This document shows positions 818-58,765 of a DNA stretch of 64,000 bases, piece by piece; the stretch's first letter is position 1, and each line of letters starts with the position of its first letter. Under the pieces are notes generated by a model, which searched no databases, was not told the origin of the DNA, and was given only the letters and a program-made list of their open reading frames with translations. The position numbers were made by a program, and so were the translations under genes. Source of the stretch: an uncultured Alphaproteobacteria bacterium (GTDB taxonomy: Bacteria > Pseudomonadota > Alphaproteobacteria > Geminicoccales > Geminicoccaceae); NCBI GenBank assembly GCA_902826935.1, contig CADEGR010000005.1, positions 1,256 to 65,255 on the forward strand, read 5' to 3'.

Positions 818-822
818 CTTAG

Positions 823-1827: not shown

Positions 1828-1918
1828 CCATTTTGTACGATAAGATTGAGCGCTGGATTTTTGCGCTGCAGATCAAATATATTAACCAGCAACAGGCTGC
1901 TTAAGGAGAGCCAACACT

Positions 1919-2836: not shown

Positions 2837-3179
2837 GCGCGATCGGCGGGGCTCGTTGTGGGGTGGCGCCATGAAGGTGCGCCTGCCTTAACGGCTAGTA
2901 CATCGAGTCAGGCGTGGACGCGCCATCAGCATGAATTGGCCCGCCTGGCTCGATGATCATCCGTGGCTAACGGCTGGCGACGAGCTAAGGAGCTGGCACA
3001 TTGGTGCTTCGCCCTGGCAGATTGCGCAGGTGCGTCGCGGTAAGTGAAGCATCCACAGCTAGGACAGCGGCGTGCCGAAAGCGCTACCGCAATAGCGCAC
3101 AGCGGCATCCTGAGCGCTATCGATCGGCCGCCAGATCCGCCGCGCACGCCGGCGCATGGGGTGCAGGTTCGAGTCGAAC

Positions 3180-4250
3180 TGGATTCGCAATGCTTGAGAG
3201 TATCCGCAATTTGAGTGGGCGCAAAAGACGGCATGGTCGCAGCTGGACCTGAAATCGCCCATAGGTTGCCGGCGTCCGTCTTTGTTCCGGGCAGCCTTGC
3301 GCAGCGTGGCCAATGCGCCCCTGCTCAAAAGCATCGCCGGACCAGTGCTAGAAATTGCTCGCCTGGGCAAAGGACCTCGCCGGTTATCGGAACATCGAGG
3401 AGGTCCGAGGGCGCAATGAGTTTCGAGCTTGGTAAAGGCCGGTTCGATCGGGTTAAGGTTCGGCGGGGCGGCGGATACCGCTGGCGATCCGGTGGGCAGG
3501 CGGGTTGTCCATCACGAGGATGTCGGCGGCCGCAGGATCGGCGCCCAGCGATGCGGTAGGCAGGTGAGGCAATCGGGCCATCCAGCGGACCGCGGGGCAC
3601 GCAGAAACGTCGATCCCGAGGGCGGCGAGGAATGGCCAACCAGCCCGATGGTGGGCGGGCATGACGTTTGCATCAAGCAGGCTTGAGAATGCTGCTAGTC
3701 CATTTGGGCCGGCCGGCGATGATCGTGAGATGTGGTTGCAGATGGGCTTTGGCTGTCGGCGCGCGATCGGATGCGCCGACAGCCAGTAGATGGGTTGCCA
3801 GATGCCGAAGATCTTCTCGATCCGGTAACGGATCTGGTGGCTTGGTCAGTTCATGGCCGTGGATTGCCTTGCTTGGCGGGTGGCCGGGGCCCTTTTCGGT
3901 GCCTCCGCTGATCGCGCCAGCCACGGGCGACGTCGACCCGCGTCGCGGGCTCGACCGGGATCCCTTGATGCCGGGTTGCGGGGACCGGTCATCCGCCAGC
4001 AAGCCTTCAGTTGGCCGTGATCTTGTCCAACAGCGTCTGATCAAGCCGTGGCGCAGGCGTTCTCGGCGAAAAGCGCACGAAGGCGGCGCGTTCCGGCGTG
4101 GCCCCCATGCGGACTCCCACCGATCATCGCAAGCGGCGGTTAGCTCACCGCGCCTCGCGATGTCGCGCGGATCAGCTCGAGCAGGCGTTTGAGCGGCGAC
4201 CAGTTGATCAGCCGGGCGATCTCGTCAGCGACGACCGCTTCTCAGCTAGC
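3180..4250 (-). pseudogene. decayed IS630/Tc1-mariner-family transposase (multiple frameshifts, ends undefined)
   Basis: Minus-strand fragments in shifting frames: PAHHRAGWPFLAALGIDV and ADILVMDNPPAHRIASGIR (DDE 'vMDNxxaHk' motif, ORF 3453-3662). Then PPNLNPIEPAFTKLE (~3430-3475, cf. SPDLNPIEqaFaKLK). Then LRKAARNKDG...NCGYSQ (ORF 3059-3370). Weaker N-terminal-like pieces lie at 3.8-4.2 kb. There is no intact ORF. Confidence 0.6.
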
Positions 4251-40029: not shown

Positions 40030-40599
40030 TCAGCGCACCGAATGGCCGCCGCGCACCAGCTGGACGCGGCTGGCCTGCGGGCCCATCGGACCTTCGCCGG
40101 CGGCCAGCGTGTAGAGCACCTGGCAGCCGACCGTCAGCGCCGCGAAGTCGCCGTTGTTGACCACGTCACGGTGGAAATAGACGTTCGGCTGGGTCGGCGT
40201 CTCGATGAAGCCGTAGCCCTGCTCCTGATAGAGCTGGACCACATGGGCATAGACCGGTCCGTCATGGGCCTTGACCTCGTGCCGGTTGATCCGGCGCTGA
40301 TCCTCCAGCTGCCGCTCCAGCGCGTCGAACGCCACGCCGATCACGGCGTAGGCATCGCCGTGGCTCTCGTGATGCCGCTGCTCGCGCTTGACCACGATCT
40401 CCTTGCCGGGCGTGCTGACGTCGATGGTGATGCCGACGGTGCTGCGATGCGGCTGCTTGTGGGGCGCTTCGATGGTCACCCGGCAGGCCACGAGGTTGTT
40501 GCCGACCTTGCTCAGCCGGGCGACCCGCTGGCGCACCCGCGCCTCGATCGCATCGGAGCGCGCCAGATTGTGGAAGTTGATCTTGAGCGGCACCTGCAT
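40030..40599 (-). CDS. HPF/RaiA (ribosome-associated inhibitor) domain fused to a cold-shock domain
   Basis: The N-terminal ~110 aa, MQVPLKINFHNLARSDAIEARVRQRVARLSK...DAYAVIGVAFDALERQL, is HPF/YfiA-like. The C-terminal ~70 aa, VVQLYQEQGYGFIETPTQPNVYFHRDVV...GCQVLY, is CSD-like with an RNP1-type GYGFI motif. Confidence 0.8.
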   Translation of the reverse strand: MQVPLKINFHNLARSDAIEARVRQRVARLSKVGNNLVACRVTIEAPHKQPHRSTVGITIDVSTPGKEIVVKREQRHHESHGDAYAVIGVAFDALERQLEDQRRINRHEVKAHDGPVYAHVVQLYQEQGYGFIETPTQPNVYFHRDVVNNGDFAALTVGCQVLYTLAAGEGPMGPQASRVQLVRGGHSVR

Positions 40600-40881: not shown

Positions 40882-41538
40882 ATGGGACAGGCGAATATGG
40901 CGAGCCCGCTCACCCTCTGGTCACGGCGCCGCCTGCTGACGGCGGCGGCGGTCGTGCCGGTGCTGGCTCTGCCGGGCGAGGTCTTGGCCGGCGCGCGCGA
41001 GGACGCCGCCAGCGGGGTCGTGCGCGGGCTGGTCGAGCAGATTCTGGCGGTCCTGCAGCAGGGCGCGCTCGACGGCGAGCAGGCGCGCGCCCTCATGCGC
41101 GTGATCGAGCAGCGGACCGATCTGACGCTGCTCGCGCGCCTGGCCATGGGCCGGCACTGGCGAACTGCCACCCAGGAGCAGCAGGCCAGCTATGTCGAGC
41201 TGTTCCGACGCTATGTCCTGCAGTCCTTCGTCCGCCGCTTGAGCCAGGTCGCCACGGTCGAGATCGGCAGCCCGGCCGAGCGGTTCTCGATCCTCGCCAG
41301 CCGGCCGGTCGATGCCCAGGACGTGCTGGTCAGCTCCAAGGTGGTGCCGCCGTCGGGGCCGCCGCTCAAGGTCGACTGGCGGCTGCGCGAGCAGCCGGGC
41401 GGGCCGGTGATCATCGACCTCCTGGTCGAGGGGGTCAGTCTGTTGATCAATCAGCGCGCCGAGTTCGGCGCGGTGCTGGAGCGCTCTGGCGTCGATGGCC
41501 TGCTGCAGCTGCTCGAGGCCAGAAGCGCGAGCGCCTGA
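40882..41538 (+). CDS. MlaC/Ttg2D-family periplasmic lipid-binding protein
   Basis: Twin-Arg-like signal SRRRLLTAAAVV. LARLAMGRHWRTATQEQQASYVELFRRYVLQSF...VDWRLRE..GGPVIIDLLVEGVSLLINQRAEF. Confidence 0.8.
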   Translation: MGQANMASPLTLWSRRRLLTAAAVVPVLALPGEVLAGAREDAASGVVRGLVEQILAVLQQGALDGEQARALMRVIEQRTDLTLLARLAMGRHWRTATQEQQASYVELFRRYVLQSFVRRLSQVATVEIGSPAERFSILASRPVDAQDVLVSSKVVPPSGPPLKVDWRLREQPGGPVIIDLLVEGVSLLINQRAEFGAVLERSGVDGLLQLLEARSASA

Positions 41539-41611: not shown

Positions 41612-42253
41612 TCACGAGGTCTCGGCGCGGGCGCGCAGGTTGGCCAGCAGGCCGTCCGGCCCGCCCCGCTCCAGGATGGCTGCGAAATCGGCGCGCTGCG
41701 TCACCAGCAGGCTGACGCCCTCGATGATCACGTCGATGATCGCGGCTCGGCCGCCGCTTTGCCGCAAACGCCAATCGATGGTCACCGATGGCCGCGAGCG
41801 CAGGCTCAGCTTGGTCCGGACCAGCGCGTCCTGCCGGCCGACCGGATGGCTATCGGTCACCATGAAATGGTCTTCATAGCGGCCTTCCACGTCGGCGGCG
41901 TAGGCGTCCAGGCGGCGGGCCAAGGAACGGATCACCACCGCATCGAACAGCTGCTGATAGGCGGTCCTCTGCTGGTCGTCCAATTGCCGCCAGTTCCGGC
42001 CTAGGGCCAGGCGGCTGAGCAGCCTGACGTCGGTCCGGGCGGTCAGCGCCTGGCGCAGCCGCTCAACCCGGTCCGGCGTGGCCTGGCCCTGCAGCAGCGA
42101 CCAGACCTCGCGGCCAAGCTCGATGACGATCTCGCGTTCGGCCGCCGTCTTGGGCAGGCCGAGCGCGCGGCCAGGCAGGCCGGCCAGCGTTGCGAGCGAC
42201 GCCAGGCCCGCCATCAGCTCCCGTCTGGAATAGGCGTGGTTCGGAGCAACCAT
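41612..42253 (-). CDS. MlaC/Ttg2D-family periplasmic lipid-binding protein (paralogue)
   Basis: SRRELMAGLASL signal. LSRLALGRNWRQLDDQQRTAYQQLFDAVVIRSL...IDWRLRQSGGRAAIIDVIIEGVSLLVTQRADF. It is convergent with 40882-41538. Confidence 0.8.
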   Translation of the reverse strand: MVAPNHAYSRRELMAGLASLATLAGLPGRALGLPKTAAEREIVIELGREVWSLLQGQATPDRVERLRQALTARTDVRLLSRLALGRNWRQLDDQQRTAYQQLFDAVVIRSLARRLDAYAADVEGRYEDHFMVTDSHPVGRQDALVRTKLSLRSRPSVTIDWRLRQSGGRAAIIDVIIEGVSLLVTQRADFAAILERGGPDGLLANLRARAETS

Positions 42254-42389
42254 GCTGGCGCATCTCCGCAGCAATTGACCGCTTCGGCCAGCCGACCGGC
42301 GGCCGGCGAGGCAGGGGTGACGATTGGCTACCCATCAAGCGCAGAACGAGGCTGCAGGCAGAAAGATCCAGCGCGTCCAGCCGCACCGG

Positions 42390-45343: not shown

Positions 45344-46666
45344 CTACGACTGATTGGCGTCGAAGGCCCAGACCAGATAGCGGCCGGTATTGAGAAACTT
45401 GGCGGGATCCATGGCAGTCCCGTCGACCCGGACCTCGTAATGCAGATGACGGCCGGTGCTGCGGCCGGAGTTGCCGATCACCCCTACGACCTGGCGGAAC
45501 TCGATCTGATCGCCGGCGCGCACGCTGACCGACTTGAGATGGCCGAAGCGGCTGGTGACACCCATGCCGTGGTCGATCTCGACGGTGTTGCCATAGGGGC
45601 CAAGCGGGCCGGCGTGGACAACCCGGCCAGGCGCCGTCGAGCGGATCTTGGAACCCGGCTCGGCCGCGAAGTCCAGGCCGCCATGGAACGCCCATTCGCC
45701 GGTGATCGGATCGCGTCGCTTGCCGAACGGGCTGGTCAGGGCATAGCTGTCCAGCGGCGAGCCCAGCGGCAGGCTGCGCGCTAGCTTCTGCAACGCCGCC
45801 AGGCGCTGGATGTCGCCGGCAATCGGATCCGGTGCCTGCACCGCCGCCGGCTGGGCCCCGGTGCCATTGGCCGGGCTGGCATTGACCAGCTGGAAGGGGC
45901 CGCCCTGGCCGACGCCATTGTCGGTCGCCCGAGCGATCATGTCCTCGACGTCCATGCCGGTCTGCCGGAACAGATCGGTCAGCGCGGTGGCGCTGCCCAG
46001 CACCCAGTCCTTCAGCCAGAGCTGGGCCAGCTTGCTGCCGGTCCGCTCCTCGGCCAGCTGGCTTTCGATCTGGGCGATCCGCCAGCGCAGGCTCATCTCC
46101 GCCCGGCGGCCGGCGTCGCGCTGCGAGCGCAGGTCATGCAGCTGGGTCTGCATCGCGGCCAGCCGCTGCTTGAGCGACGATTTCTCCTCTTCCGCGCTCT
46201 GCAGCAGGCCATCCGCGCCGGCGATCGACTTCTCGAAATCGCTGACCAGGGCGCGCACCTGGTCGCGCTGCTCGGTCACCCGGTCCAGCTGCTTCTCGCG
46301 GGTGGCGAGCTGGGCCACCAGCGTCCGACGCAGCTGTGCCAGCTCGCCCAGCGCTTCCCGCTGCTCCTGGCTCGCCACCTCGAAGTCCTCGAGCTTGTCG
46401 AGCACCGTGAAGGCGGAGCGCTGGCTGTCGGTCAGCATGTCCGAATAGGACTGCTCCAGATCGCGAAAGTCCGCGACCGTATCGGACCACAGCTGGTAGC
46501 TGGTCAGGTAGGTGATCGAGGTGATCGTCAGCCAGGCCGACAAAACGAATGCCGCACTGGCGGTGAGCAGCGTGCGCTTGTAGCTCCAGGCCAGCTTCGG
46601 CAGGCGGCCGAGTCCGCCCATCAAGGCTTTGCCCGACGACCATCCGAGCGCCCGCGGCTGCTTCAT
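45344..46666 (-). CDS. M23 family metallopeptidase with N-terminal TM helix and coiled coil
   Basis: HGGLDFAAEPGSKI...GNTVEIDHG...GNSGRSTGRHLHYEV. A long coiled coil lies between the TM helix and the peptidase domain. Confidence 0.85.
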   Translation of the reverse strand: MKQPRALGWSSGKALMGGLGRLPKLAWSYKRTLLTASAAFVLSAWLTITSITYLTSYQLWSDTVADFRDLEQSYSDMLTDSQRSAFTVLDKLEDFEVASQEQREALGELAQLRRTLVAQLATREKQLDRVTEQRDQVRALVSDFEKSIAGADGLLQSAEEEKSSLKQRLAAMQTQLHDLRSQRDAGRRAEMSLRWRIAQIESQLAEERTGSKLAQLWLKDWVLGSATALTDLFRQTGMDVEDMIARATDNGVGQGGPFQLVNASPANGTGAQPAAVQAPDPIAGDIQRLAALQKLARSLPLGSPLDSYALTSPFGKRRDPITGEWAFHGGLDFAAEPGSKIRSTAPGRVVHAGPLGPYGNTVEIDHGMGVTSRFGHLKSVSVRAGDQIEFRQVVGVIGNSGRSTGRHLHYEVRVDGTAMDPAKFLNTGRYLVWAFDANQS

Positions 46667-46908
46667 CCCGTCACCCCGTGTAACAAAAGCGCCCCTCATG
46701 CCGCACCATGACCATGGGGCATCGCATTGGCGCTCGACGTTTCCCCGTATGTATTCACAGTTTCTTCGGGGGGCTTTGATCGGCGCGGATTATGAAAAGC
46801 TTATCTCAAATCGGCAAGACTTAAGCAGCGCGAAACGTGACGAAAAAGCGCTGGATGCCGGCGCCATGAGCGCCAGGAGCGAACAATCGTGAGGCTGGGG
46901 CGCATCCA

Positions 46909-46960
46909 AGCTGAAGAAAGTTGGCCGGCAAGCTGAAGAAAGCTGGCCAGCTGAAGCCGG
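46909..46960. repeat. short tandem direct repeat in intergenic region
   Basis: AGCTGAAGAAAGTTGGCCGGC / AGCTGAAGAAAGCTGGCC / AGCTGAAGCCGG, about 2.5 copies of an ~18-21 bp unit. Confidence 0.7.
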
Positions 46961-47007
46961 TCAACGGCATGGTGGCCACATGGCCAAGCGGCCGGAACGA
47001 GCGCGCT

Positions 47008-47226
47008 TCAGCCGCAGGCGACCGCGGTCGGTGGCGCTAGGAAGGCGTACCAGGTGACCAGCGCGATGCCCTGGCAGAGCGCGAACAGAATCGCCAGACC
47101 CATGGCCGCCGAGAGAAACTCGTTCACGCTGGTGCCCGAAGCTCGCAGATGCCGCACGCCCTGACAGAGCAGGTGCCAGGCCCCGACCAGGCCGAACAAC
47201 ACAGCGGCCGACTCGAGATAGCTCAA
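47008..47226 (-). CDS. possible small two-TM membrane protein
   Basis: 72-aa ORF with two hydrophobic segments. There is no other support. Confidence 0.25.
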   Translation of the reverse strand: MSYLESAAVLFGLVGAWHLLCQGVRHLRASGTSVNEFLSAAMGLAILFALCQGIALVTWYAFLAPPTAVACG

Positions 47227-47449
47227 GGGCTGCCTCCAGAACTATAACGGTGGAGGACCGACAGACGGGATTGCACTATCTCAAATAGAGTATCAGAAAT
47301 CGCGCCCGGAGCCAGGTGTTTCCATTTGTACAGCTCGGCTGCGTGATGGCGGGCCGGTGCTGGCGGCACCAGGGCAGCAAAACCATGATCGGGCTTGCCA
47401 GCGGCGGCCTGGGACGGCAGATTTCCGGGCTCCACAGCATTCTTGGATC

Positions 47450-48523
47450 ATGCCCTTGGCCTTGCCTGCTCGGATGAGGATCGCTGCGCTGGCTGGCTGC
47501 TTGCTGGCAGCGCTGCTGCCGGCCGACGCTCTGGCGCAAACCCCGGCCGGCGACGCGTCGCTGCCGACCCGCGTGCAGCTGCTGGTCGAGCTCCTGCGCA
47601 ATCAGCTCTCGGCCGAGCAGCTGCGGCATGATCAGCTGGGCAAGGAGCGGGCCGATCTGGCCCAGCCGCTGCCGGCGAGCGCCGGGCCGGCCCAGCGCGC
47701 GCAACGCGAACGCCGCCTGGCCGAGATCGATCAGGCCCTGCTGGATTCTGCGGCGGCATTGGCCCGGATCGAGAACGAGCTGGCGCAGGTCGAGGGCAGG
47801 CCGATCAAGCCGGCCGGCGCCATCGAGCCGCCCGGATCAGATGGCGAGGCTGTGCCGGCAGCAAGCGAGGACGTGCGCGTGACCGCGCAGGGGGTCGAGC
47901 TGGCGCCGGTGACCGGCCCGCTGTTCGACGATGAGCCGCGCCAGATTCAAGAGGCGCTGATTCTGGTCGGCGGCTATGACGGCCGGATCGACGGCAAGCT
48001 CGGGCGCCGCACCGCTGCGTCGATCGAACGTTTCCAGGAGCGGCTGGGCGTGCGCGCGACCGGGCGTCTGACGCCGCGCGAGCAGACCGCGTTGTTCGAG
48101 CAGGCGGACGCGCTGCGCCGCGACTTTCAGCTGATGCGCCTCGCGGATCCCGGCACGGGCGTGCGCCTGGTTTATCCCAGCAAGCTGCTGCCGCTCGAGC
48201 GCGCGGCCGAGGATGGCCGCCGGCAGTTCCTGTCGGCCGATGGCGCCAGCGCGCTGCGGCTTGGCGATGCCGGCCCGCGCGATCGCCTGGCCGGGCTGTT
48301 CCGCGAGCTGGTCGAGCGCTATCAGGTCAATTACAGCCGGCTCGACGATGACTGGTTCGTGGTGACCGGCACGTCCGGCAAGCGCATGGTCTACGATGTC
48401 GCCAGGCGCACGGCCGAGCGCACGGTCCATGTCAGCCTCACCTATCCGATGACCGAGCAGGCGAGCTGGGATCCGTTCACGGTGCTGCTCTACAATTCCT
48501 TCTCGGCGGCACCGCCTGGCTGA
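47450..48523 (+). CDS. secreted peptidoglycan-binding (PG_binding_1) domain protein with coiled coil
   Basis: Signal MRIAALAGCLLAALLPADALA. IQEALILVGGYDGRIDGKLGRRTAASIERFQERLG. The start is 47450 or 47474. Confidence 0.7.
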   Translation: MPLALPARMRIAALAGCLLAALLPADALAQTPAGDASLPTRVQLLVELLRNQLSAEQLRHDQLGKERADLAQPLPASAGPAQRAQRERRLAEIDQALLDSAAALARIENELAQVEGRPIKPAGAIEPPGSDGEAVPAASEDVRVTAQGVELAPVTGPLFDDEPRQIQEALILVGGYDGRIDGKLGRRTAASIERFQERLGVRATGRLTPREQTALFEQADALRRDFQLMRLADPGTGVRLVYPSKLLPLERAAEDGRRQFLSADGASALRLGDAGPRDRLAGLFRELVERYQVNYSRLDDDWFVVTGTSGKRMVYDVARRTAERTVHVSLTYPMTEQASWDPFTVLLYNSFSAAPPG

Positions 48524-48726
48524 GCCTCTGCGGCACAGTGGCTTGCGGCCGGCTTGGGCTTGGCTCATTCTTGTCAACGCTACAGTCGGCTAAAAAAGCT
48601 TTCCTCGCTGTAGAATAGCGCTTTGCAATTGCGGTTTGGCGTTTAAGGATCGACGTCGATTTCGCTCATCCACGGCCATCTCCTGGCCAGTGGAGCAGCG
48701 CGCAAAGCAAAGTTGAGGAAACGATC

Positions 48727-50235
48727 ATGCAGCGCAGCGCCCGACTGAACCAGCGCATCCACTCAGCAAATCTTAGCGCGCGCGGCCGGCCGATCCTGGC
48801 CCGCGAGGCCGTGCGTCTGGCCGCGGTCAGTCTGCTGCTGGCCGTTGGCTGGGGCGGCTCCGGCATCGCGCAGGTGGCGCCACCGGCCAACGTGCTGGTG
48901 CGGGTGCCCGGCCTGAACGACGCGCAGCGCAACATGGCCGGCTCGATCGACGCCGTGTGCCCTAATATCGGCGGGGCCGGCGACCCGGCCCTGACCCAGC
49001 AGCTGTCCGTCGTCTGCAGCAACATGGTCGCGGACGGCGTCGATATTGTTGGACCGGGCACGGTCGATCCGCCGGTGGCCGGCTTCGGCTTGGACGCCGA
49101 TGGCCTCGGCAATGCGCTCCAGTCGATCAATGGCGAGGAGATCCAGGCGGCGCAGTCGCGGGTGACCGAGGTGCGCGGCCTCCAGGTCGGCAACATCGCC
49201 GCGCGCATGCAAGCGGTCCGCACCGGCCGCGTCGGGCCGGGCCTGCAGGTTTCGGGCTTGAGCTTCGATGGTGGCGACACCGCGCTGGCCGGACTGGATG
49301 GCGTCCGGCCATCGCTTCAGGATTTCGAGATCGTGCCGGCGCAATGGCTGAACGACACCACCTGGAGCAAGCTTGGCGTGTTCGTCACCGGCGGCCTCCA
49401 GCTCGGCGACAAGGACTCGACCGGCCAGTCCGACGGCTTCGACTTCGACAGCTTCGGGCTAACGGTCGGCGCCGATTATCGCGTCACCGACCAGTTCGTC
49501 TGGGGTGCGGCGCTGGGCTACAGCAATTTCGATGCGGACTTCGACGCCACGGCCAATACGCCGGCCGGCGAGGGCTTGCAGAGCGACAGCCTGCTGGCCT
49601 CGCTGTTCGCGTCCTTCAGCCTGCCGCAGGGCCTGTTTGTCGACGGCATCGCGACGATCGGCACTGACGGCTACGACTCGACCCGCCGCATCGTCATCCC
49701 GGGCGCCATCGACGAGACGGCGGACGGTGATTTCGACGCCTTCCACTATGGCGTCGCCGCCAATGTCGGCTACGACATTCCGGTCCACGGCTTCACGGTC
49801 ACGCCGGTGGCGCGGGCCGAGTATATCAAAGCCGACCTCGATGGCTTCACGGAGACCGGGGCCGGCGCCCTCAATTTGACCTTCGGCGACCAGAACGCGG
49901 AGTCGCTGACCACCAATCTCGGCGTCGAGGCGTCCTACCCGATCAGCACCGAGGTCGGCGTGTTCGTGCCCAGCGTGCGCGCCGAATATGTCCACGAGTA
50001 CTTGAACGACGACGACGGCGTCACCGTGTCCTACGCGGCCGACAACACCGCGACCAAGGTTTCGGCATTCAATATCACGACCGAGACGGCCGATTCCGAC
50101 TACGGCATCCTGGGCGCTGCGGTCGCCGTCACGGTCGCGGACGGCTGGTCGGCCTTTGTCGACTACAGCACTGTGGTGGCGCTCAGCGACTTCGATATCC
50201 ACAACGTCAACGTGGGTTTCCGCAAGCAGTTTTGA
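48727..50235 (+). CDS. autotransporter (type Va) beta-barrel domain protein with short passenger
   Basis: Signal peptide. C-terminal ~280 aa: GVFVTGGLQLGDKDSTGQSDGFDFDSFGLTVGADYRV...ALGYSNFDADFD... It ends NVNVGFRKQF. Confidence 0.8.
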   Translation: MQRSARLNQRIHSANLSARGRPILAREAVRLAAVSLLLAVGWGGSGIAQVAPPANVLVRVPGLNDAQRNMAGSIDAVCPNIGGAGDPALTQQLSVVCSNMVADGVDIVGPGTVDPPVAGFGLDADGLGNALQSINGEEIQAAQSRVTEVRGLQVGNIAARMQAVRTGRVGPGLQVSGLSFDGGDTALAGLDGVRPSLQDFEIVPAQWLNDTTWSKLGVFVTGGLQLGDKDSTGQSDGFDFDSFGLTVGADYRVTDQFVWGAALGYSNFDADFDATANTPAGEGLQSDSLLASLFASFSLPQGLFVDGIATIGTDGYDSTRRIVIPGAIDETADGDFDAFHYGVAANVGYDIPVHGFTVTPVARAEYIKADLDGFTETGAGALNLTFGDQNAESLTTNLGVEASYPISTEVGVFVPSVRAEYVHEYLNDDDGVTVSYAADNTATKVSAFNITTETADSDYGILGAAVAVTVADGWSAFVDYSTVVALSDFDIHNVNVGFRKQF

Positions 50236-50354
50236 TCGCTCGGGCTGAGCCGGCCGACGCTGCCGACCAGCGCGAGCATTTGGTTCGGGCAATTTGTCGA
50301 GTATTATCCCGAACACTCGTCGGAGCCGGTATTGGCCAAGTGAGGATCATTCCC

Positions 50355-52712
50355 ATGCGCGACGCTCGTTCGACCAGGCCGAGCGGCCTGGCTGCCGGCT
50401 GCAGATGGCTTGGCGGCGTGCTGCTTCTGGGCCTCGCGGCCTGCCAGGCGCCGCAGACGACGGCGCCGGCAACGCCGGGTGCCGGCGCAACGGCCGGGCA
50501 GCCGGCGGTCGCGGACGCCAATGACTTCCTGGTCGTCGATTGCGTGCTGCCGGCCCAGGTCAAGCGCCTGGGTAGCCGGCTGACCTATCTGGGCGCGCGC
50601 CGGGCGCTGCGGACGTCGGGCAGCGACTGCGCGATCCGGGGCGGCGAATATGTCGCCTATGACCGCGGCAACTACAGCACCGCGCTGGCGGTCTGGGAGG
50701 AGAGCGCCAGGAACGGCGACCCCCAGGCCCAGACCTATGTCGGCGAGATCTATGAGCGTGGCCTGACTGGCGCGCCGGACTACCAGAAGGCGGCGCGGTG
50801 GTACCAGGCGGCGGCCGATCAGGACTTCGGCCCGGCGCTGGTCAATCTTGGCCAGCTTTACGAGCAGGGCCAGGGCGTGCCCAAGAACGAGCTGACCGCG
50901 CTCAACCTCTACCGCAAGGCATCCGGCTTCGAGGATGCCCAGATGACCCTGGTGGTGGCCTCGGACATTGCCAGCGAGCTCGACCAGCTGCGCGGCCAGG
51001 TCGGCGCCAAGAGCGCCGAGGCCAGCCGGCTGCGCCAGGAGATCGGCTCCCTGGAAACCGAGCTGGCGGCGCTCGAGAGCGCTCGCCAGACCGCGACCGG
51101 TGGCCCTTTGATCAAGCTCGAGACCTGGCAGGCCGAGCTCGAGCAGGAGCAGGCGGCGGTGGCCGCGGCCGAAGCCCAGGCGCAAGCCCAGGCCAGGGCG
51201 CTGCAGGAGGCTCGCAACACGATCGAGGACGGCCGCCGTGCGCTTGCCAAGGAGCGGGCCGAGCTGGAGGCGCGCCGTGCCCAGGCCTCGATCAATCAGG
51301 CCCAGGCAGACGAGCTGCAGCTGCAGCTGACCGATCTGCAGCGGCGCGAGGCGGCCCTCGACGAGCGGGCCAGCGGCTTCGATGCCCGCGAGGCGCAGCT
51401 GCAGCTGCGCGAGGCAGAGCTGGCCAAGCGCGAAGCAGCGCTCGCGGCCCGGCAGAACGCAGCCGATCGCAGCCCGGCGCCGGCGCCGGCGGCGGTACCC
51501 GACAAGCGCGCGGCCGCGGAGCCGCAGAACCTGGACGCCATCGATCAGCAGATGGCAGCGGTCCGCGAACGGCTGGACGTAACCCGCCAGCGGCTGTTCC
51601 AGGCCTTTGCCGGCGACGATATCGACCTCGCCGGTCCGGCGATTTCGGTGTTCGAGCCGATGGTTGTGCCCAGCCGCGGCCTGACCGTGGTGCCGGCCAA
51701 CGGCGCCGCCGGTCCGCGGCCGGTCAAGGGCAGCATCGAGGCGCCGGCCGGCCTGCAGAGCCTGACCATCAACAGTCAGCCGGCCAAGTTCGAGGCCCGC
51801 GACGGCCGCTATTTCTTCGAGACCAAGGTGCCGCTGGCCCAGGGCGGCACCAAGGTCAGCATCGTTGCGGTCGATCAGCAGGGCAAGCAGGCGGACGTCA
51901 ACTTCCTGCTGCGCGGCACCGGCGATCTGGCCCAGGCAGCGGCCATCCAGCCAGCGGCGGCGGCCTTCGATCAGGTCGAGTTCGGCAGCTTCCACGCCCT
52001 GGTGATCGGCAATGGCAGCTTTGCCAGCTGGCCGGCCCTGCCGACCGCCCAGGCCGATGCCCAGGCCGTCGCCGATCTGCTGGCCCGGCAATATGGCTTC
52101 GAGGTGACCCTGCTGCAGGACGCCGATCGCTACAAGATGCTCTCGGCGCTGAACGACTACCGGGTGCGGCTGACCGAGAAGGACAATTTCCTGATCTACT
52201 ATGCCGGCCGCTGCCAGGTCGACGAGCAGGCTGGCCGGGGCTACTGGCTGCCGGTCGACGCCGCGCCCGAGCGGCCCGACAGCTGGATCTCCAATGTCGC
52301 GATCACCGGAATCCTGGACACCATGAGCGCCAAGCGGGTGATGGTGGTGGCCGACTCCTGCTACTCCGGCACCCTGACCAGCGCTGCCCTGACCAAGCTC
52401 GATCCGAGCAGCTCCGAGCAGGCACGCCTGGCCTGGCTTCAGACCCTGGCGACCAAGCGCTCGCGGACCGCGCTGACCTCCGGCGCGCTGGCCCCGGCCA
52501 CGGCGAGCGGCGGCCATTCGCCGTTTGCTCAGGCGCTGATCGAGGCGCTCGCCAGCAATCGCGACGTGCTGGAAGGTCAAGGCCTGTTCCGGGCCTTGGC
52601 GAGCAAGGTCGCCTATGGCAGCGCTGCCCCGGCGGCGCAGCGGCCGAGCTACGCGCCGATCCGCTTCACCGGCCATGAGGCAGGCGACTTCGTGTTCGTG
52701 CCCAAGATCTGA
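50355..52712 (+). CDS. lipoprotein: Sel1 repeats + ~170-aa coiled coil + Ig-like region + caspase (C14) domain with His->Arg at the catalytic dyad
   Basis: Lipobox LLGLAAC. Sel1 motifs (AQTYVGEIYERGLTGAPDYQKAARWY, LVNLGQLYEQGQGVPKN). The caspase domain runs HALVIGNGSF...LIYYAGRCQVD...YWLPVDA...VVADSCYSG. ATG 50355 follows GAGGA. Confidence 0.8.
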   Translation: MRDARSTRPSGLAAGCRWLGGVLLLGLAACQAPQTTAPATPGAGATAGQPAVADANDFLVVDCVLPAQVKRLGSRLTYLGARRALRTSGSDCAIRGGEYVAYDRGNYSTALAVWEESARNGDPQAQTYVGEIYERGLTGAPDYQKAARWYQAAADQDFGPALVNLGQLYEQGQGVPKNELTALNLYRKASGFEDAQMTLVVASDIASELDQLRGQVGAKSAEASRLRQEIGSLETELAALESARQTATGGPLIKLETWQAELEQEQAAVAAAEAQAQAQARALQEARNTIEDGRRALAKERAELEARRAQASINQAQADELQLQLTDLQRREAALDERASGFDAREAQLQLREAELAKREAALAARQNAADRSPAPAPAAVPDKRAAAEPQNLDAIDQQMAAVRERLDVTRQRLFQAFAGDDIDLAGPAISVFEPMVVPSRGLTVVPANGAAGPRPVKGSIEAPAGLQSLTINSQPAKFEARDGRYFFETKVPLAQGGTKVSIVAVDQQGKQADVNFLLRGTGDLAQAAAIQPAAAAFDQVEFGSFHALVIGNGSFASWPALPTAQADAQAVADLLARQYGFEVTLLQDADRYKMLSALNDYRVRLTEKDNFLIYYAGRCQVDEQAGRGYWLPVDAAPERPDSWISNVAITGILDTMSAKRVMVVADSCYSGTLTSAALTKLDPSSSEQARLAWLQTLATKRSRTALTSGALAPATASGGHSPFAQALIEALASNRDVLEGQGLFRALASKVAYGSAAPAAQRPSYAPIRFTGHEAGDFVFVPKI

Positions 52713-52736
52713 ACGCTGCGGCCGCCGCGGGCGCCG

Positions 52737-53291
52737 CTATAGCGGCTTGGGCGGCGCCAGCTCGTGGTAGAGCAGCTTGGGCTCGCCGGGCCCGAGTGGC
52801 GCCGCGGCAACCGGTGGCGGCTCCGCTGGCGGCGCGGGCCGGGCTTCGGCCGGCGGCTCGGGTTGGACGCCGAGCGCCCGCTCCCTGGCCCGCTCGGCCA
52901 GCTCGACCTGGCGCTGCTTGTCGGCCAGGAACTCCTGCAAGATCGCTTCCTGGTCCGAATTCAAGAGCTGGTTGCGCTCTAGCAGGCTCTCGAACAGCTG
53001 GACCTCGGCCGGCTGCATGGTCGCCTTGTAGGTCAGCAGCTGATCGAGCAGGCCGCGCTGCTTCTGGCTGAGCCCCCCGGTCGATTGGATCGGCTGCCAG
53101 CAGCAGCCGCCCGCCGGGCGCCCGGCCTGCGCCGCGCGATCGGTCAAGGCCGGCCGCAAGCCCGCCAGGGCGGATGCCGTTGGCAACGGCAGCAGCGACA
53201 GCAGGGCCAGGGCGGCCGCAATGCGGACGGGATGCCTCAAGGCAGGCCTTTTCCTTTGCCAGAGCGAGCGGCTAGCTGTGGGATTTATCAC
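52737..53291 (-). CDS. secreted hypothetical protein (signal peptide, CC pair, helical region, Pro-rich tail)
   Basis: RIAAALALLSLLPLPTASALA signal. GGCCWQP. Pro-rich C-terminus. It lies between the two caspase genes on the opposite strand. Confidence 0.4.
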   Translation of the reverse strand: MINPTASRSLWQRKRPALRHPVRIAAALALLSLLPLPTASALAGLRPALTDRAAQAGRPAGGCCWQPIQSTGGLSQKQRGLLDQLLTYKATMQPAEVQLFESLLERNQLLNSDQEAILQEFLADKQRQVELAERARERALGVQPEPPAEARPAPPAEPPPVAAAPLGPGEPKLLYHELAPPKPL

Positions 53292-53446
53292 TGCATTGCC
53301 CCGGCAACCAGCCTACACTGCCGCCTTGGTGCCGCTTGGTGAGTGCGGCCCACACGACCAGGGCGAGGCGAAAATTTTGCGAGAAGGGGCCGCGCGGCGC
53401 GAAATGGCACCCATTTCTATATCGTAGAAAGCCGCTAGGATGACCA

Positions 53447-56400
53447 ATGCGGTCGAGCAGCATTGACATAAGCCTAGCCATGGCACCGACCTCAGCCCCC
53501 TGCGGAGCCGCAGGCCGCCGGCGACTGCCGGCCAGTGGCAGGCCCCTATGGGGGCGCTGGGCGGCGGCGCTGAGCCTGGTCTTGGCACTTCTAATGGCGC
53601 GCCCTGGCCATGCCGAGACCCGGGTCGCGCTGATCATCGGCAATGCCGGCTACGACAATGTGCTCGACCTCGACAATCCCTCGACCGATGCCGACGCGAT
53701 CAGCGACAAGCTGCGCGGCCTCGGCTTCGATGTGCTGACCACGATCGACGCCAAGAAGGCCGACATGATCGCGACCATCCGCGAGTTCGGCCAACGGGTC
53801 GAGCAAGCGGATGTTGGCCTGTTCTACTACGCTGGCCACGCGATCCAATATGGCGGCACCAACTACTTGGTGCCGACCGATGCATTCTTGCGCAACCAGG
53901 GCGACATCGATCTGGAGCTGATCGACGTCAATCTGGTCCTGCGCCAGCTGCAGGATCGCACCAAGACCCGGCTGATCTTCCTGGACTCCTGCCGGGACAA
54001 TCCGTTCGAGGATCTGGCCGCCGATCCGCGCAGCCTGCCCAATCCCGGCCTGGCGCCGGTCGCGGCCAGCCGCGGCACCTTCATCGCCTATGCGACCGAG
54101 CCGAACCACGCCGCCTTCGATGGCATCCAGGACATCCACAGCCCGTTCGCCCGGGCACTCTTGAGCTACATCGACAGCCCGGGCCTTGAGGTCCGCGGCA
54201 TGATGACCAAGGTCCGGGCCGAGGTGGTGCGCGCCACCAACGGTCAGCAGGTGCCGTGGGACCATTCCTCCCTGCTCAGCGACTTCTATTTCCGGCCCTC
54301 GACCGAGAGCGCGGTCGCCAAGGCCGACCAGGAGCTGGAGCAGCTCAACCAGGTGCTGGCGGTGGCCGATCCGGAGGAGCGCCTGAACCAGCTGCGCAGC
54401 TTCAAGGAGGCCCATGCCGGCAGCGCGCTGATGCCGCTGGTCGACAGCGCGCTGCAGTCGAGCGGCCGGCCGACCCTGCAGAACCCGGGCCTGAACCGGC
54501 CGCCGCTGCTGTCCAAGAGCCCGGAGCTGGTGGTCGAAGGCGGCAGCGGCGCCCATGAGCTGGCCATTCCGGCACCGCGCGATCCGGATGGCGACCCGCT
54601 CCAGATCACGGTGGTCGAGCTGCCGAGCAGCGGCACGATCCGCAGCCGCGGACGCCAGGTCAAGGTCGGCGACGCGCTGACCTTGAAGCAGCTGGAGGCG
54701 GCCACCTACCACCTGCCGCCGGACGTGATCGGGTCGGTTGGCCAGTTCACCTTCCAGGTCGCGGACAACCGGGGCGGCTCGGTGGTCGGCGCCTTGCCGA
54801 TCCGAATCCTCAAGGCCAACCAGCTGCCGGTCATGCCGGCACCCGAGGCGCTGGTGGTGACCATTGGCGGCCCGGCGGTCCCGATCGTGCGCGAGCCGCC
54901 GACCGATCCCGATCCGGATGACCGGGTGATCGTGCGGGTCCAAAGCGGGCCGGCCCAGGGCGAGCTCACGCTGGACGGCGTCATTCTGTTCGCCGGCGCC
55001 GCGGTCACCGCCGAGCAGCTGCAGCGGGTCGCCTACCAGCCGCCGGCCGAGTTCGTGGCGGATGCCGGCGCGATCGGCCTGATGGCGGAAGACGGCCGCG
55101 GCGGCGAGACCCAGCGCCGGATCGCGATCACCCTCAACCGGCAGCCGGATTTCGGCCGCAACAGCACGGTCGATCTGGTCGCTGGTCCGGCCGCGCGGCC
55201 GCTCGCGATCGCGCCGCCGGTCGATCCGGATGGCGACGATCTCAAGGTCGTGGTGCGCGGCCTGCCGAGCGAAGGTGGTGCGGTGGTCGTCGGCGAGCGC
55301 AAGCTGGCGCTGGGCGACAGCCTGTCCTCGGCCGATTTCGCGGCGCTCGCCTTCCAGACCGAGGCCGGCTTTTCCGGCTATGCCGGCCGCCTGGCGCTCG
55401 AGGCCGACGACCAGCGTGGCGGCCGCAGCGAAAAGGCGGTCACCTTGCGGATCGCGCAGCCCAACAACCCGCCGATCCTGCCCGACCAGAGCCGGGCCTT
55501 GACCGCCGAGGTCGGCCGCGCCAGCCCGCTCCAGCTAGGCCAGCCATTCGATCCGGACGGCCAGGAGGTCGTGGTCCTGATCGTGCAGACGCCGGCCAAC
55601 GGCCGCATCCTGCTCGACGAGCTGGAGATCACGCCCGGCTCGACCGTGACCCCGGTCGAGCTGACCCAGCTGCGCTTCATGCCGGATGCCGGCAGCGTCG
55701 GCCAGACCAGTGCGCTCCACTATGCGGTCGGCGACGGCCATGGCGGTGCGACCCTCGGCAGCATCGAGATCTCGGTGGTTGCCGCCAACCGGCCGCCAGT
55801 GGTCGCCAATGCCGAGATCTCCACCAGCAGCGACCGGCCGCCCGAGCGCCTGGTCAAGCAAGCGCCGAGTGATCCGGATGGCGATCCCCTTACGATCGAG
55901 GTCGTGAGCCTGCCAGCCAGCGGCCGGAGCCTGCTCGGCGAGCGCCCCTTGAAGGTCGGCGACCAGCTGACGCTCGAGGAGCTGAGCCAGATCGCCTTTG
56001 CCGCCAGCAGCGATTTCGTGGGCTGGGCCGGCAGCTTCACCTATGCCGTGACCGACGGTCGCGATGGTCGTTCGGTCGGCGGCGTCGACATCTTCGTCGA
56101 GCCGCCCAACCGTCCGCCGATCGCGGCCAGCGAGGCGCATCAGGAGGTCTTGAAGGGGCGGCCGGCGACCTTGCTGATGCGGCGGCCCTTCGATCCTGAC
56201 GGCGATGCCTTGAGCGTGCAGGTGACGGCGGTGCCGGCACGCGGCAGCGTCCTGCAAGACGATCGCAAGATCGCGGTCGGCGCCAAGCTCAGCCTCGCCG
56301 AGCTGGCCAATCTGCGCTTCGACCCCGAGGCCGGCGAGCCCGGCATTGCCGGCAGGTTCAGCTATGCCGTGCGCGACGATCGCGGCGGCGAGGCGCAAGG

Positions 56401-58765
56401 CGGCATCGAGCTGGCGATTGCCCAACCCAACCGGCCGCCAAGCGTGCCGGCCGACGTCACCTTGACCGTGACGGCCGGCGATCCGGCGATCCCGCTGCTC
56501 CAGGACGCGGCGCCCAAAGATCCCGACAACGATCCGCTGACCGCGACCATCCTGGATGTGCCCGAGACGGGTGAGGTGCGGGCCGGCGACAAGGTCGTGC
56601 GGCAGGGCGCCGAGCTGCCCTTGGCCGACCTTGCCCGCGTCACCTACAGCTCCGCGCCGACCTATATCGAAACCGCGGCCTTGTTCCGCTACCGCATCGA
56701 TGACGGCCGGGGCGGCCAGGCCATCGGCCAGATCGCGTTGATCATCGAGCCCGGCAACCGTGATCCGATCGCAGCACCGGTGCCAGCCTTCGAGCTGCAG
56801 GCCGGCGAGGCGCCCGCCCGTCTGCCGCTGGACGCGCCCTACGATCCCGATGGCGACCCGCTCGCGGTCAAGCTCGCGGCCCTGCCCGAGCTGCCCGGCC
56901 TGGTCCTCAAGGTCGGCGACCGCACGCTCGCCGTCGGCGACAGCCTCACGGCCGATGAGCTGACCCGGCTGAACTTGTCGGTCGCGATGGCGGCGGCGGA
57001 GCAGACCGGCGAGCTGCGCTTCGAGCTCAGCGACGGCAAGGGCGGCCAGGCCAGCACCGGCGTCATGGTCAAGGTCACGGCGCCGCCCAATCGGCCGCCG
57101 GTGGTGATCGTGCGCGGCCCGCTTGAGGTGATGCAGCAAGGCGGACCGCAGCCGCTCGGGCTGGAGGAGCCGATCGACCGCGACGGCGATCCGGTCATGG
57201 TCGAAATCACCGCCTTGCCGAGCAGCGGCCGGATCCTGCAGGGCGACGATGCGCTGGCCCAGGGGGCCGAGGTGGCACCGGCGGAGCTGGCCGCCCTGCG
57301 CTTCGATCCGGGCGATGCCGGGCCCGGCTATGCCGGCAGCTTCGAGCTCAAGGCGGTCGACAGCAAGGGGGCGAGCACGCTCGGCCGGGTGCCGATCACG
57401 ATCGTGACGCCGCCCAATCGGCCGCCGCTGATCGCCTCGCAGGCGCCGATCGAGGCGGTGATCGGGGTCGGGACCTTGCCCTTGCCGGTCGAGCTGCCGA
57501 ACGATCCCGATGGCGATCAGCTGACCATCAAGATCACCTCGGTGCCGCAGAACGGCAATCTGCTGTTCAGCGGCCGCTCGGCGGCGTCGGGCATGCTGCT
57601 GACGGTCGAGGAGTTCGCGGACGCCCGCTTCACGCCCGATCCCGAGCGGCCGCTGATCCGCGGCACCGCGTCCAGCTTGCGCTACAGCGCCGATGACGGC
57701 CGCGGCGGGGCAGCCGAGGGCGAGGTGGTGATCCGGTCGATCCTGCATGATTGCGATCGGCTGGCGAGCGCGGCCCAGAACGTGGACAGCGTGGCGCCGG
57801 GCGTGCAGCTGGCGGCGATCGAGGCCGCCCCGGCGATCGACGCCTGCCAGGCGGCCTTGGCCGAATATGGCAACATCGTGCGCTTCCGCTTCCAGCTGGC
57901 GCGCGCCTACCAGGCCAAGGGCTCGTTCCGCGAGGCGCGCGATGCCTATTTCGTGGCGGCCCAGGCGGGCGATCTCGCGGCGCAGTACAATCTCGGCCTG
58001 CTCCTGATCGATCCGCCGCCGGCGCTGGCCGACCGGCCGGACATCGAGCGCGGCCTGTTCTGGATGCGCAAGGCCGGCGAGGCCGGGCTGCTGCCGGCCC
58101 AGGTCGGTCTAGCCGCGGTGATCTGGCAGCAGGCGCAGGCCGGGGCGGCGGTCGATACCGCGGAAGCCGTGCACTGGCTGGAGCAGGCCAGCCAGCAGGA
58201 TGATCCGCAGGCGCTGACCGAGCTGGCGATGGCCTATGCCGAGGGCCGCGGCGGTCTCGCCCAGGACGGTGCCCGGGCCGCCAGCCTGCTGCGCCGCGCG
58301 GCCGCCCAGGGCTATCCGCCGGCGCAGACCAATCTCGGCTACCTCTACGCCCAAGGCGCCCTCGGCCAGCCCGACTACGCCGAGGCTGAGCGCTGGTTCT
58401 CCGTGGCTGCCGATCAGCAGGACGGCCAGGCGCTGATGAATCTCGGCACGATGCACCTGATGGGCCAAGGCGTGGCGCGCGATCCGATCAAGGCGGTCAC
58501 GTCCTATGCCGCGGCCGCATGCGTCGGCGGCGACGCCATGGCCGAGCTGGCGGAAGCCTATCTGGACCGCCTTAGCCCCAGCGAGGAAGTGCTGGCGGCC
58601 CAGTCGCTGCTGACCGCCAAGGGCTATGATCCCGGTCCGATCGACGGCCGGATCGGGCCCAAGACCACGGTCGCGCTCGAGCGTTTCGAGCAGGCGAGCG
58701 GCCAGCCACCGACCGGCACCGCCTCCCCGGCGCTGCTGCTGACCCTGGCCGGCTGCCCGAACTGA
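53447..58765 (+). CDS. 1772-aa secreted protein: caspase (C14) domain + 10 cadherin-like DxDGD repeats + Sel1 repeats + C-terminal PG_binding_1 domain
   Basis: ALIIGNAGYD...LFYYAGHA (His codon 53837)...IFLDSCRDNPF (Cys codon 53990). Ten ~107-aa repeats. Sel1 motifs (AQYNLGLLL, AQTNLGYLYAQG, ALMNLGTMHLMGQGV). The C-terminus reads LLTAKGYDPGPIDGRIGPKTTVALERFEQ. Confidence 0.85.
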   Translation: MRSSSIDISLAMAPTSAPCGAAGRRRLPASGRPLWGRWAAALSLVLALLMARPGHAETRVALIIGNAGYDNVLDLDNPSTDADAISDKLRGLGFDVLTTIDAKKADMIATIREFGQRVEQADVGLFYYAGHAIQYGGTNYLVPTDAFLRNQGDIDLELIDVNLVLRQLQDRTKTRLIFLDSCRDNPFEDLAADPRSLPNPGLAPVAASRGTFIAYATEPNHAAFDGIQDIHSPFARALLSYIDSPGLEVRGMMTKVRAEVVRATNGQQVPWDHSSLLSDFYFRPSTESAVAKADQELEQLNQVLAVADPEERLNQLRSFKEAHAGSALMPLVDSALQSSGRPTLQNPGLNRPPLLSKSPELVVEGGSGAHELAIPAPRDPDGDPLQITVVELPSSGTIRSRGRQVKVGDALTLKQLEAATYHLPPDVIGSVGQFTFQVADNRGGSVVGALPIRILKANQLPVMPAPEALVVTIGGPAVPIVREPPTDPDPDDRVIVRVQSGPAQGELTLDGVILFAGAAVTAEQLQRVAYQPPAEFVADAGAIGLMAEDGRGGETQRRIAITLNRQPDFGRNSTVDLVAGPAARPLAIAPPVDPDGDDLKVVVRGLPSEGGAVVVGERKLALGDSLSSADFAALAFQTEAGFSGYAGRLALEADDQRGGRSEKAVTLRIAQPNNPPILPDQSRALTAEVGRASPLQLGQPFDPDGQEVVVLIVQTPANGRILLDELEITPGSTVTPVELTQLRFMPDAGSVGQTSALHYAVGDGHGGATLGSIEISVVAANRPPVVANAEISTSSDRPPERLVKQAPSDPDGDPLTIEVVSLPASGRSLLGERPLKVGDQLTLEELSQIAFAASSDFVGWAGSFTYAVTDGRDGRSVGGVDIFVEPPNRPPIAASEAHQEVLKGRPATLLMRRPFDPDGDALSVQVTAVPARGSVLQDDRKIAVGAKLSLAELANLRFDPEAGEPGIAGRFSYAVRDDRGGEAQGGIELAIAQPNRPPSVPADVTLTVTAGDPAIPLLQDAAPKDPDNDPLTATILDVPETGEVRAGDKVVRQGAELPLADLARVTYSSAPTYIETAALFRYRIDDGRGGQAIGQIALIIEPGNRDPIAAPVPAFELQAGEAPARLPLDAPYDPDGDPLAVKLAALPELPGLVLKVGDRTLAVGDSLTADELTRLNLSVAMAAAEQTGELRFELSDGKGGQASTGVMVKVTAPPNRPPVVIVRGPLEVMQQGGPQPLGLEEPIDRDGDPVMVEITALPSSGRILQGDDALAQGAEVAPAELAALRFDPGDAGPGYAGSFELKAVDSKGASTLGRVPITIVTPPNRPPLIASQAPIEAVIGVGTLPLPVELPNDPDGDQLTIKITSVPQNGNLLFSGRSAASGMLLTVEEFADARFTPDPERPLIRGTASSLRYSADDGRGGAAEGEVVIRSILHDCDRLASAAQNVDSVAPGVQLAAIEAAPAIDACQAALAEYGNIVRFRFQLARAYQAKGSFREARDAYFVAAQAGDLAAQYNLGLLLIDPPPALADRPDIERGLFWMRKAGEAGLLPAQVGLAAVIWQQAQAGAAVDTAEAVHWLEQASQQDDPQALTELAMAYAEGRGGLAQDGARAASLLRRAAAQGYPPAQTNLGYLYAQGALGQPDYAEAERWFSVAADQQDGQALMNLGTMHLMGQGVARDPIKAVTSYAAAACVGGDAMAELAEAYLDRLSPSEEVLAAQSLLTAKGYDPGPIDGRIGPKTTVALERFEQASGQPPTGTASPALLLTLAGCPN
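54527..57740 (+). repeat. ten divergent in-frame coding repeats (~320 nt each) inside the giant gene
   Basis: Each unit contains (P/F)xDPDGDxL...LPxxGxL...G..L....L..L.F.P..G..G...F.Y.v.DgrGG...g.i.i.v...NrPP. The anchors are RDPDGDPL, TDPDPDDRV, VDPDGDDL, FDPDGQEV, SDPDGDPL, FDPDGDAL, KDPDNDPL, YDPDGDPL, IDRDGDPV and NDPDGDQL. Confidence 0.75.

Follow-up and report, generated by a model that had tools for sequence, protein, structure and literature searches.

Bacterial caspase homologues are abundant, and few have been studied. MaOC1 of Microcystis, a characterised orthocaspase, is a cyanobacterial enzyme, and we know of no report of an export signal in it. A full-text search of the literature turned up no work on the function of an exported proteobacterial caspase, and exported proteobacterial homologues are absent from the papers found. 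A 2012 survey catalogued prokaryotic caspase homologues (PMC3501461), and a 2017 review followed (PMC5756287); 6% are fused to Sel1 repeats and 2.1% to a cell-wall-binding domain. Here we describe a locus of this type in a 64,000-nucleotide stretch of contig CADEGR010000005.1 (positions 1,256 to 65,255, forward strand; assembly GCA_902826935.1) from an uncultured member of the Geminicoccaceae; this whole stretch is referred to as the window. Four adjacent genes, g4 to g7, encode an autotransporter-type barrel protein, an exported protein with Sel1 repeats and a caspase domain, a small secreted protein, and a giant exported caspase protein. This locus resembles the surveyed orthocaspases in its p20 fold, His-Cys dyad (complete in g7, with only the Cys kept in g5), acidic S1 pocket, fusions to Sel1 and cell-wall-binding domains, and N-terminal signal-like helices; by contrast, the surveys list architectures only (PMC3501461, PMC5756287).

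Sel1 repeats that act in the periplasm are also known from two other proteins, PodJ and ExoR. The periplasmic end of Caulobacter PodJ consists of Sel1 repeats and a peptidoglycan-binding domain, and the C-terminal end of g7 has Sel1 followed by PG_binding_1, in the same order. In Sinorhizobium ExoR, periplasmic Sel1 repeats bind a sensor-kinase domain, and ExoR is in turn regulated by proteolysis; ExoR-like proteins that contain Peptidase_C14 or PG_binding_1 have been listed in non-Rhizobiales (PMC4550343). Unlike g5 and g7, neither of these proteins carries a protease domain, and there are no ExoS/ChvI genes among the annotated genes flanking the locus in the window. The locus also differs from anti-phage defence caspases (gasdermin-associated, CHAT/Craspase) in having export signals and no defence-model match beyond a generic caspase profile. 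PADLOC returned only a weak match of that generic type for g7 (1.7e-6) and none for g4, g5 or g6, consistent with an earlier reading of the DNA letters, hereafter the first-pass annotation, which had argued that this is not a cytoplasmic defence caspase.

We scanned a g5-family profile against the GTDB species-representative genomes. Relatives were found in at least 586 species genomes from Alpha-, Beta- and Gammaproteobacteria, Desulfobacterota and Rokubacteria. The best 80 of these loci were kept and, together with those of the two nearest relatives (L001 and L002) and with L003, make up the 83 related loci compared here. The order autotransporter, Sel1-caspase, small reverse-strand gene, giant caspase is preserved in both L001 (g5 identity 55%) and L002 (45%), so that the two caspase genes lie side by side there as they do in the window, in line with the linkage proposed in the first-pass annotation. 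That annotation had also grouped seven consecutive genes, g1 to g7, as a single envelope island. However, tblastn searches with g1, g2 and g3 detected no homologue anywhere in the 83 loci, including the two closest, and an M23 or PG_binding_1 gene is missing from the 10 kb around the cassette in L001 and L002, whose other neighbours are unrelated. Only g4 to g7 are syntenic, and the conserved cassette is g4-g5-g6-g7. Genes g1 and g3 are cell-wall neighbours with no detected evolutionary link to this cassette, and the suggested connection to cell-wall hydrolysis thus reduces to their local adjacency.

Within the cassette, g4 and g5 have the wider distribution. A g4-type autotransporter was found by tblastn in 59 of the 83 loci. 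Flanks of 6 kb or more on both sides were available for 44 loci, and in 36 of these a g4-type gene lay no more than 6 kb from the g5 homologue. These pairs span several phyla, and the g4-type gene occurs on either side and on either strand, with all four arrangements represented. Proximity that survives rearrangement is a usual mark of functional linkage, and these comparisons point to the g4+g5 pair as the ancient core. The giant peptidoglycan-tethered g7 and the small secreted g6 are additions in this lineage and its two nearest relatives.

We clustered all open reading frames (ORFs) of the 83 loci and ran Pfam on the cluster representatives. The most frequent neighbours were a lipoprotein of the alpha/beta-hydrolase type that carries a GxSxG motif (34 loci), a membrane-spanning Hanks Ser/Thr kinase whose outer domain resembles tetratricopeptide repeats (34–38 loci, often directly adjacent), and a PP2C phosphatase (21–24 loci). 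Six loci had an extracytoplasmic function (ECF) sigma factor gene, followed in Rhodocyclaceae by a 291-aa caspase. In L003, which lies on a 4.5-Mb contig, the row reads PG_binding_1/DUF4384, OmpA, 673-aa caspase, autotransporter, hydrolase, g5 homologue. The family is thereby extended from a single locus to a defined set of genes in at least 586 species genomes, with a dedicated barrel as a testable partner and with recurrent kinase/phosphatase or ECF-sigma neighbours; this widespread pairing of an autotransporter with a Sel1-caspase protein beside signalling genes is a more interesting result than the pair of intact and mutated caspases in the window. Cultivable hosts of the g5 family include Methylomicrobium, Methylobacter and Methylomonas. 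The window is a less suitable model, because its own g5 carries a private active-site mutation.

Three of these neighbourhoods have additional features. In the Rhodocyclaceae locus L013 (12372–14578), the g5 homologue is followed by the ECF sigma factor gene, a 228-aa protein with no Pfam match that is possibly an anti-sigma factor, and the 291-aa stand-alone caspase, which is 38% identical to the g7 caspase domain. In L003, seven consecutive same-strand small genes (506–3616; 83–116 aa; no Pfam match) precede the PG_binding_1/DUF4384-OmpA-caspase row, and may be tandem members of one small secreted protein family associated with the caspase module. A protein of ~440 aa with five CxxCH motifs (multihaem cytochrome c) is encoded upstream of the kinase/PP2C/autotransporter/caspase group, ~4–6.7 kb upstream of the g5 homologue, in 12 Xanthomonadales-type loci (L017, L019, L025, L033, L037, L046, L050, L051, L053, L061, L066 and L067), which may reflect lineage synteny only.

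We next consider the proteins themselves. Pfam confirmed every domain call of the first-pass annotation (M23, PG_binding_1, autotransporter, Sel1 plus caspase, and a giant with caspase, ten repeats, Sel1 and PG_binding_1), with both caspase domains above the PF00656 cutoff of 21.4 bits (g5, 72 bits; g7, 127 bits) and both of the p20 caspase-haemoglobinase fold. The NCBIfam model "caspase, EACC1-associated type" was rejected as a family assignment, because it requires 140 bits and gave only 56 and 40. An AlphaFold2 (AF2) model of g5 built from a 120-sequence alignment (mean predicted local distance difference test score, pLDDT, 79.5) contains, in the numbering of the 785-aa protein, a small disulfide beta-domain (60–95), Sel1 helices (107–190), long helices (203–247, 256–354 and 393–418, the longest spanning 99 residues), an immunoglobulin (Ig)-like sandwich (429–521) and a complete caspase domain (545–785). 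Foldseek placed the caspase domain nearest to MALT1, GSU0716 (PDB 3BIJ) and yeast Yca1, with caspases 6 and 9 also matched, and sequence searches agreed. These three are the closest solved structures to both caspase domains of the locus by sequence and by fold, and MALT1, like g5, has an Ig-like domain beside its caspase domain; unlike g5 and g7, they are cytosolic and have other partner domains, and identity is 17–20%.

The most likely start of g5 is the ATG at 50355 (MRDARS...LLLGLAAC, with the lipobox LAAC), because the database gene call is 785 aa, the alignment of homologues begins there, and coding statistics upstream are poor. A TTG start at 50232, which overlaps the g4 stop by 4 nt and would add a 41-residue extension, was rejected: it would bury the lipobox ~70 residues into the protein, and coding statistics are poor in the first 150 nt after it. 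Among the 120 best g5 homologues, on which conservation was scored throughout, 66 have a lipobox and the remainder a type I signal peptide, indicating that export is a trait of the g5 family and that lipid anchoring is not. Two cysteines of the N-terminal beta-domain, C63 and C92, are at least 90% conserved among these homologues and invariant in a separate alignment of 27 sequences.

The AF2 model of g4 (mean pLDDT 82) comprises a signal peptide, a five-helix passenger (aa 65–167), a disordered, low-confidence linker (169–208) and a 12-strand barrel (216–501). Foldseek matched the barrel to EstA, AaaA, NalP and EspP. Pfam, AF2 and Foldseek are therefore agreed on the C-terminal 12-strand translocator of type Va autotransporters, and g4 shares with the classical members EstA, NalP and EspP both this barrel (Foldseek E-values 1e-17 to 1e-11) and an N-terminal Sec signal. 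By contrast, g4 does not have the large beta-helix or enzyme passenger, joined by a pore-filling helix, of that type, and the segment before its barrel is modelled at low confidence; its passenger is an all-helical bundle of ~100 residues, predicted to be disulfide-bonded, and its gene, unlike theirs, is co-inherited with that of an exported caspase. Cys78 and Cys97 of the passenger are kept in at least 80% of 58 orthologues, and the conserved Cys pairs of g4 and g5 fit disulfide formation outside the cytoplasm, as judged from the alignments. Together with the signal peptides and lipobox, the peptidoglycan-binding domains of g3 and g7 and the outer-membrane barrel of g4, they support the extracytoplasmic location that had been proposed. 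The barrel protein also has a conserved R160/R165 site. At residue 27 of g4, in the signal-peptide region, the window reads ILAREAVRL and the database representative P0241 reads ILARKAVRL, a strain-level Glu/Lys difference.

The first-pass annotation had correctly described one caspase as intact and the other as dyad-mutated. The dyad of g7 is intact; in g5, the change affects the His only, which is replaced by Arg, and the Cys is kept. Of 9,994 bacterial orthocaspases, 858 are pseudo-variants, and those that are known group into clades whose substitutions are conserved (YS, YN, FS, QC and HA; PMC6426788). With one dyad residue substituted, g5 fits the formal definition of this class. However, its Arg-Cys combination is shared by no clade: the catalytic His is present in 119 of the 120 family members and Arg solely in the protein of the window, the CGC codon being one A-to-G transition from CAC. 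The nearest orthologue, at 55% identity, has an intact His (YYAGHCQVD). The pairing of an active with an inactive caspase hence appears, from these alignments, to be a private and recent state and no conserved design, contrary to the evolved pairing that had been envisaged.

The Arg codon is real in the assembled populations, since contigs from three independent wastewater studies (X1/X2, X5 and X6) agree on it without a variant, with the proviso that contigs can hide rare variants; the same allele occurs in samples dated 2019, 2021 and 2022. Comparison of g5 with the X6 population (~93% identical), for which the recovered piece stops short of the His position, gave 10 synonymous and 2 non-synonymous codon differences, indicating that the g5 lineage is under purifying selection and is not decaying freely. 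A further contig, from run X9, was rejected as a carrier of a His allele because its flanks differ and it represents a paralogue of another organism; it matches 37 bases (52173–52209) and continues as GHGEYD with unrelated flanks, so that several g5-family members co-occur in one sludge-type community. The Asp residues at the two metacaspase-type S1-pocket positions, D568 and D667, are invariant in the 120 homologues and have equivalents in g7 (STDAD and LDSC); these positions were assigned by matching motifs to the description of TbMC2 in PMC6426788 rather than by superposing structures. On the basis of the substitution, g5 is probably catalytically dead in this genome and at most a scaffold. 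With the His of g5 lost, g7 would be the only competent caspase in this genome.

The g7 gene begins 734 bp beyond the end of g5. In its product, a caspase domain with an intact dyad (aa 58–281; YYAGH, His131; DSC, Cys182) is followed by ten repeats of ~108 aa (~350–1435), Sel1 repeats (~1466–1700) and PG_binding_1 (1712–1764). The repeats were counted directly; each has a DPDGD-type motif, and the NCBIfam tandem-95 repeat and Cadherin_4 models also matched. Full-length orthologues in L001 (56% identity) and L002 (40%) retain both His and Cys. The caspase domain family of g7 gave 1,360 matches at E<1e-10, with variable C-terminal modules that include PG_binding_1 and Sel1 plus PG_binding_1; the architecture of g7 is thus ordinary, and only the ten-repeat insertion is unusual. 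Between the two caspase genes, g6 runs towards g5, and 155 bp separate it from the divergently transcribed g7. It has no domain match in Pfam or NCBIfam. An orthologue is present in L001 (E = 8e-25), and a look-alike identified by eye in L002 has the same tail, position and strand. A HMMER scan of 1.84 billion representative proteins returned three at E<1e-10, namely that of the window and two relatives, indicating that g6 is a real gene restricted to this lineage. It is co-inherited with g7 and is a candidate regulator or substrate.

Table 1. Genes g1 to g7 and the two dyad codons of g5 (positions are those of the window).
Feature	Position	Strand	Description	Evidence
g1	45344-46699	-	Membrane-anchored, helical/coiled-coil M23 (LytM) metallopeptidase with DUF5930	Pfam Peptidase_M23 8e-29 (100 bits); DUF5930 8e-12
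g2	47008-47226	-	72-aa hydrophobic ORF, TTG start, unverified	GC3 0.84
g3	47357-48523	+	Exported PG_binding_1 protein, probable start near 47450	Pfam 4e-9
g4	48727-50235	+	Type Va-like autotransporter	Pfam PF03797 Autotransporter beta-domain 5e-56 (191 bits), residues 218-481
g5	50355-52712	+	Probable lipoprotein, two Sel1 and Peptidase_C14	Pfam C14 6e-20
g5 Arg619 codon	52209-52211	+	CGC at the catalytic His position (YYAGRC)	Sequence and alignment
g5 Cys669 codon	52359-52361	+	Catalytic Cys retained (DSCYSG)	Column is Cys in 119/120 homologues
g6	52737-53291	-	Small secreted Pro-rich protein, 184 aa, conserved C-terminal LLYHxxAPxxPL tail	Orthologues; signal-peptide-like N-terminus
g7	53447-58765	+	1772-aa exported giant, Sec-type signal	Pfam C14 9e-37; Big_9/Cadherin-like; Sel1; PG_binding_1 5e-11

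Our preferred reading, to which we give a probability of about 45%, is that g4 to g7 form a conserved extracytoplasmic protease cassette with g4 and g5 as its old core, that the cassette is linked to envelope signalling, and that g7 is the sole catalytic caspase in this genome. The caspase domains would be cysteine proteases that work in the periplasm or at the outer membrane; cleavage after Arg or Lys is suggested by the invariant S1-pocket Asp residues D568 and D667 of the g5 family (compare PMC6426788). The Sel1 and helical parts would keep the protease next to a partner, for which the co-inherited barrel g4 is the most plausible candidate. Output in other lineages may couple to transmembrane signalling through the Hanks kinase with PP2C, or through the ECF sigma factor. 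In the window, the A-to-G change would have inactivated g5 and left g7 as the working caspase. Several observations weigh against this reading. We infer a physical interaction between g4 and g5 from gene linkage only. Kinase, PP2C, ECF sigma and hydrolase genes are absent from the window, and the coupling to signalling may therefore not hold for this genome. Only 9 of the 83 loci have a second caspase gene at a distance of up to 10 kb, making the two-caspase form a minority. The His-to-Arg change might leave g5 with residual or altered activity, and a search turned up no RNA runs that include g4-g7. Lastly, the stalk of ten Ig-like domains is long for a periplasmic protein, and a surface role fits g7 better in this respect.

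A bolder version, which we consider doubtful, is that the barrel and the exported Sel1/long-helix/caspase protein constitute an undescribed trans-envelope proteolytic signalling device, of which the two-caspase form is derived, with g7 replacing the inactive g5 in catalysis. The barrel passenger would sense or present something at the surface, and the tethered caspase would pass the signal inward by cleaving a target in the periplasm, such as an anti-sigma factor or the sensor domain of the Hanks kinase encoded next to it. Such a device would extend the bacterial roles of the caspase fold beyond cell death and defence. In the papers found by full-text search, neither an autotransporter partner, nor the g5 layout of beta-domain, long helices and Ig-like domain, nor kinase, PP2C or ECF neighbours are described.

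The length of the stalk also bears on a rather different possibility, namely that g7 is an adhesin-like giant whose repeats are stiffened by Ca2+ through their DPDGD motifs, that g4 is a display barrel, and that the locus serves floc formation or cell-cell adhesion, with the caspases processing or releasing surface proteins. Repeats of the Big_9, Cadherin_4 and tandem-95 kinds are characteristic of large surface proteins, the passengers of autotransporters are delivered to the cell surface, and the organism comes from wastewater or activated sludge; the ten-domain stalk, if too long for the periplasm, would be explained as well. However, g7 ends in PG_binding_1 and has only a Sec-type signal, the examined flanks contain no type I or type II secretion system genes, and most loci of the g5 family are without a giant repeat protein. 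We therefore regard a surface or matrix role as unlikely. The state of the g5 dyad raises a further alternative, namely that the replacement of His by Arg is a neutral or mildly deleterious knock-out that leaves g5 without any function in this lineage. A single, private nucleotide change underlies the substitution, and the lineage is without the hydrolase and signalling partners found elsewhere. By contrast, the g5 ORF is not truncated and its alignment with relatives extends over 98%, synonymous differences from the related population outnumber non-synonymous ones 10 to 2, and the Arg allele is shared by samples from all three years; loss in progress is accordingly quite improbable. The original view of the locus, in which an evolved active/pseudo-caspase pair acts with the M23 peptidase and the PG-binding protein of a seven-gene island in regulated wall remodelling or programmed lysis, draws on the envelope-type products of all seven genes, on the adjoining caspases of the three closest genomes, and on the presence in L003 of PG_binding_1/DUF4384, OmpA and a second caspase beside the autotransporter and g5 homologue. 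Nevertheless, the complete absence of g1-g3 homologues from the related loci, the nearest included, the terminator-like hairpin after g3, and the near-universal retention of the His, which leaves the pseudo-enzyme state unconserved, make this the most remote of the readings, and we consider it very improbable. The extracytoplasmic protease cassette thus remains our preferred reading.

Genes g1 to g3 lie immediately upstream of the cassette. Both zinc-binding motifs of M23/LytM peptidases are present in the g1 translation (HxxxD as HGGLD and HxH as HLH). A metagenome scan with g1 gave a single distant match, to the M23 part only, which is uninformative on synteny, and the same scan with g3 gave zero relatives. 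No Pfam or NCBIfam match was found for g2. The hairpin (48547–48567) directly follows the g3 stop; in a promoter/terminator consensus scan, site counts in the region were no greater than in shuffled sequence, and the hairpin is a weak positional hint. GC content is 63–72% across the window, no tRNA genes were found within it, and GC content at third codon positions (GC3) is of coding type in all seven ORFs (0.83–0.89). Sequences of the region were recovered from wastewater and activated-sludge metagenomes, the source being a wastewater bacterium of 68% GC, and the best named homologues are from Geminicoccaceae metagenome-assembled genomes (45–53% identity).

Housekeeping genes flank the region. 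One flank has ilvD, a gene that fuses HPF to a cold-shock domain, two MlaC genes, Usp and TauE; the opposite flank has EamA, an ABC ATPase and an Fe-ADH-like gene. The fusion is a single ORF (40030–40599, reverse strand) that joins Ribosomal_S30AE (1.5e-13; ribosome hibernation/sigma-54 modulation) to a C-terminal CSD domain (1e-7). The two MlaC-family periplasmic lipid-binding genes (40882–41538, forward strand; 41612–42274, reverse strand), just upstream of the g1–g7 region, are convergent and separated by 73 bp.

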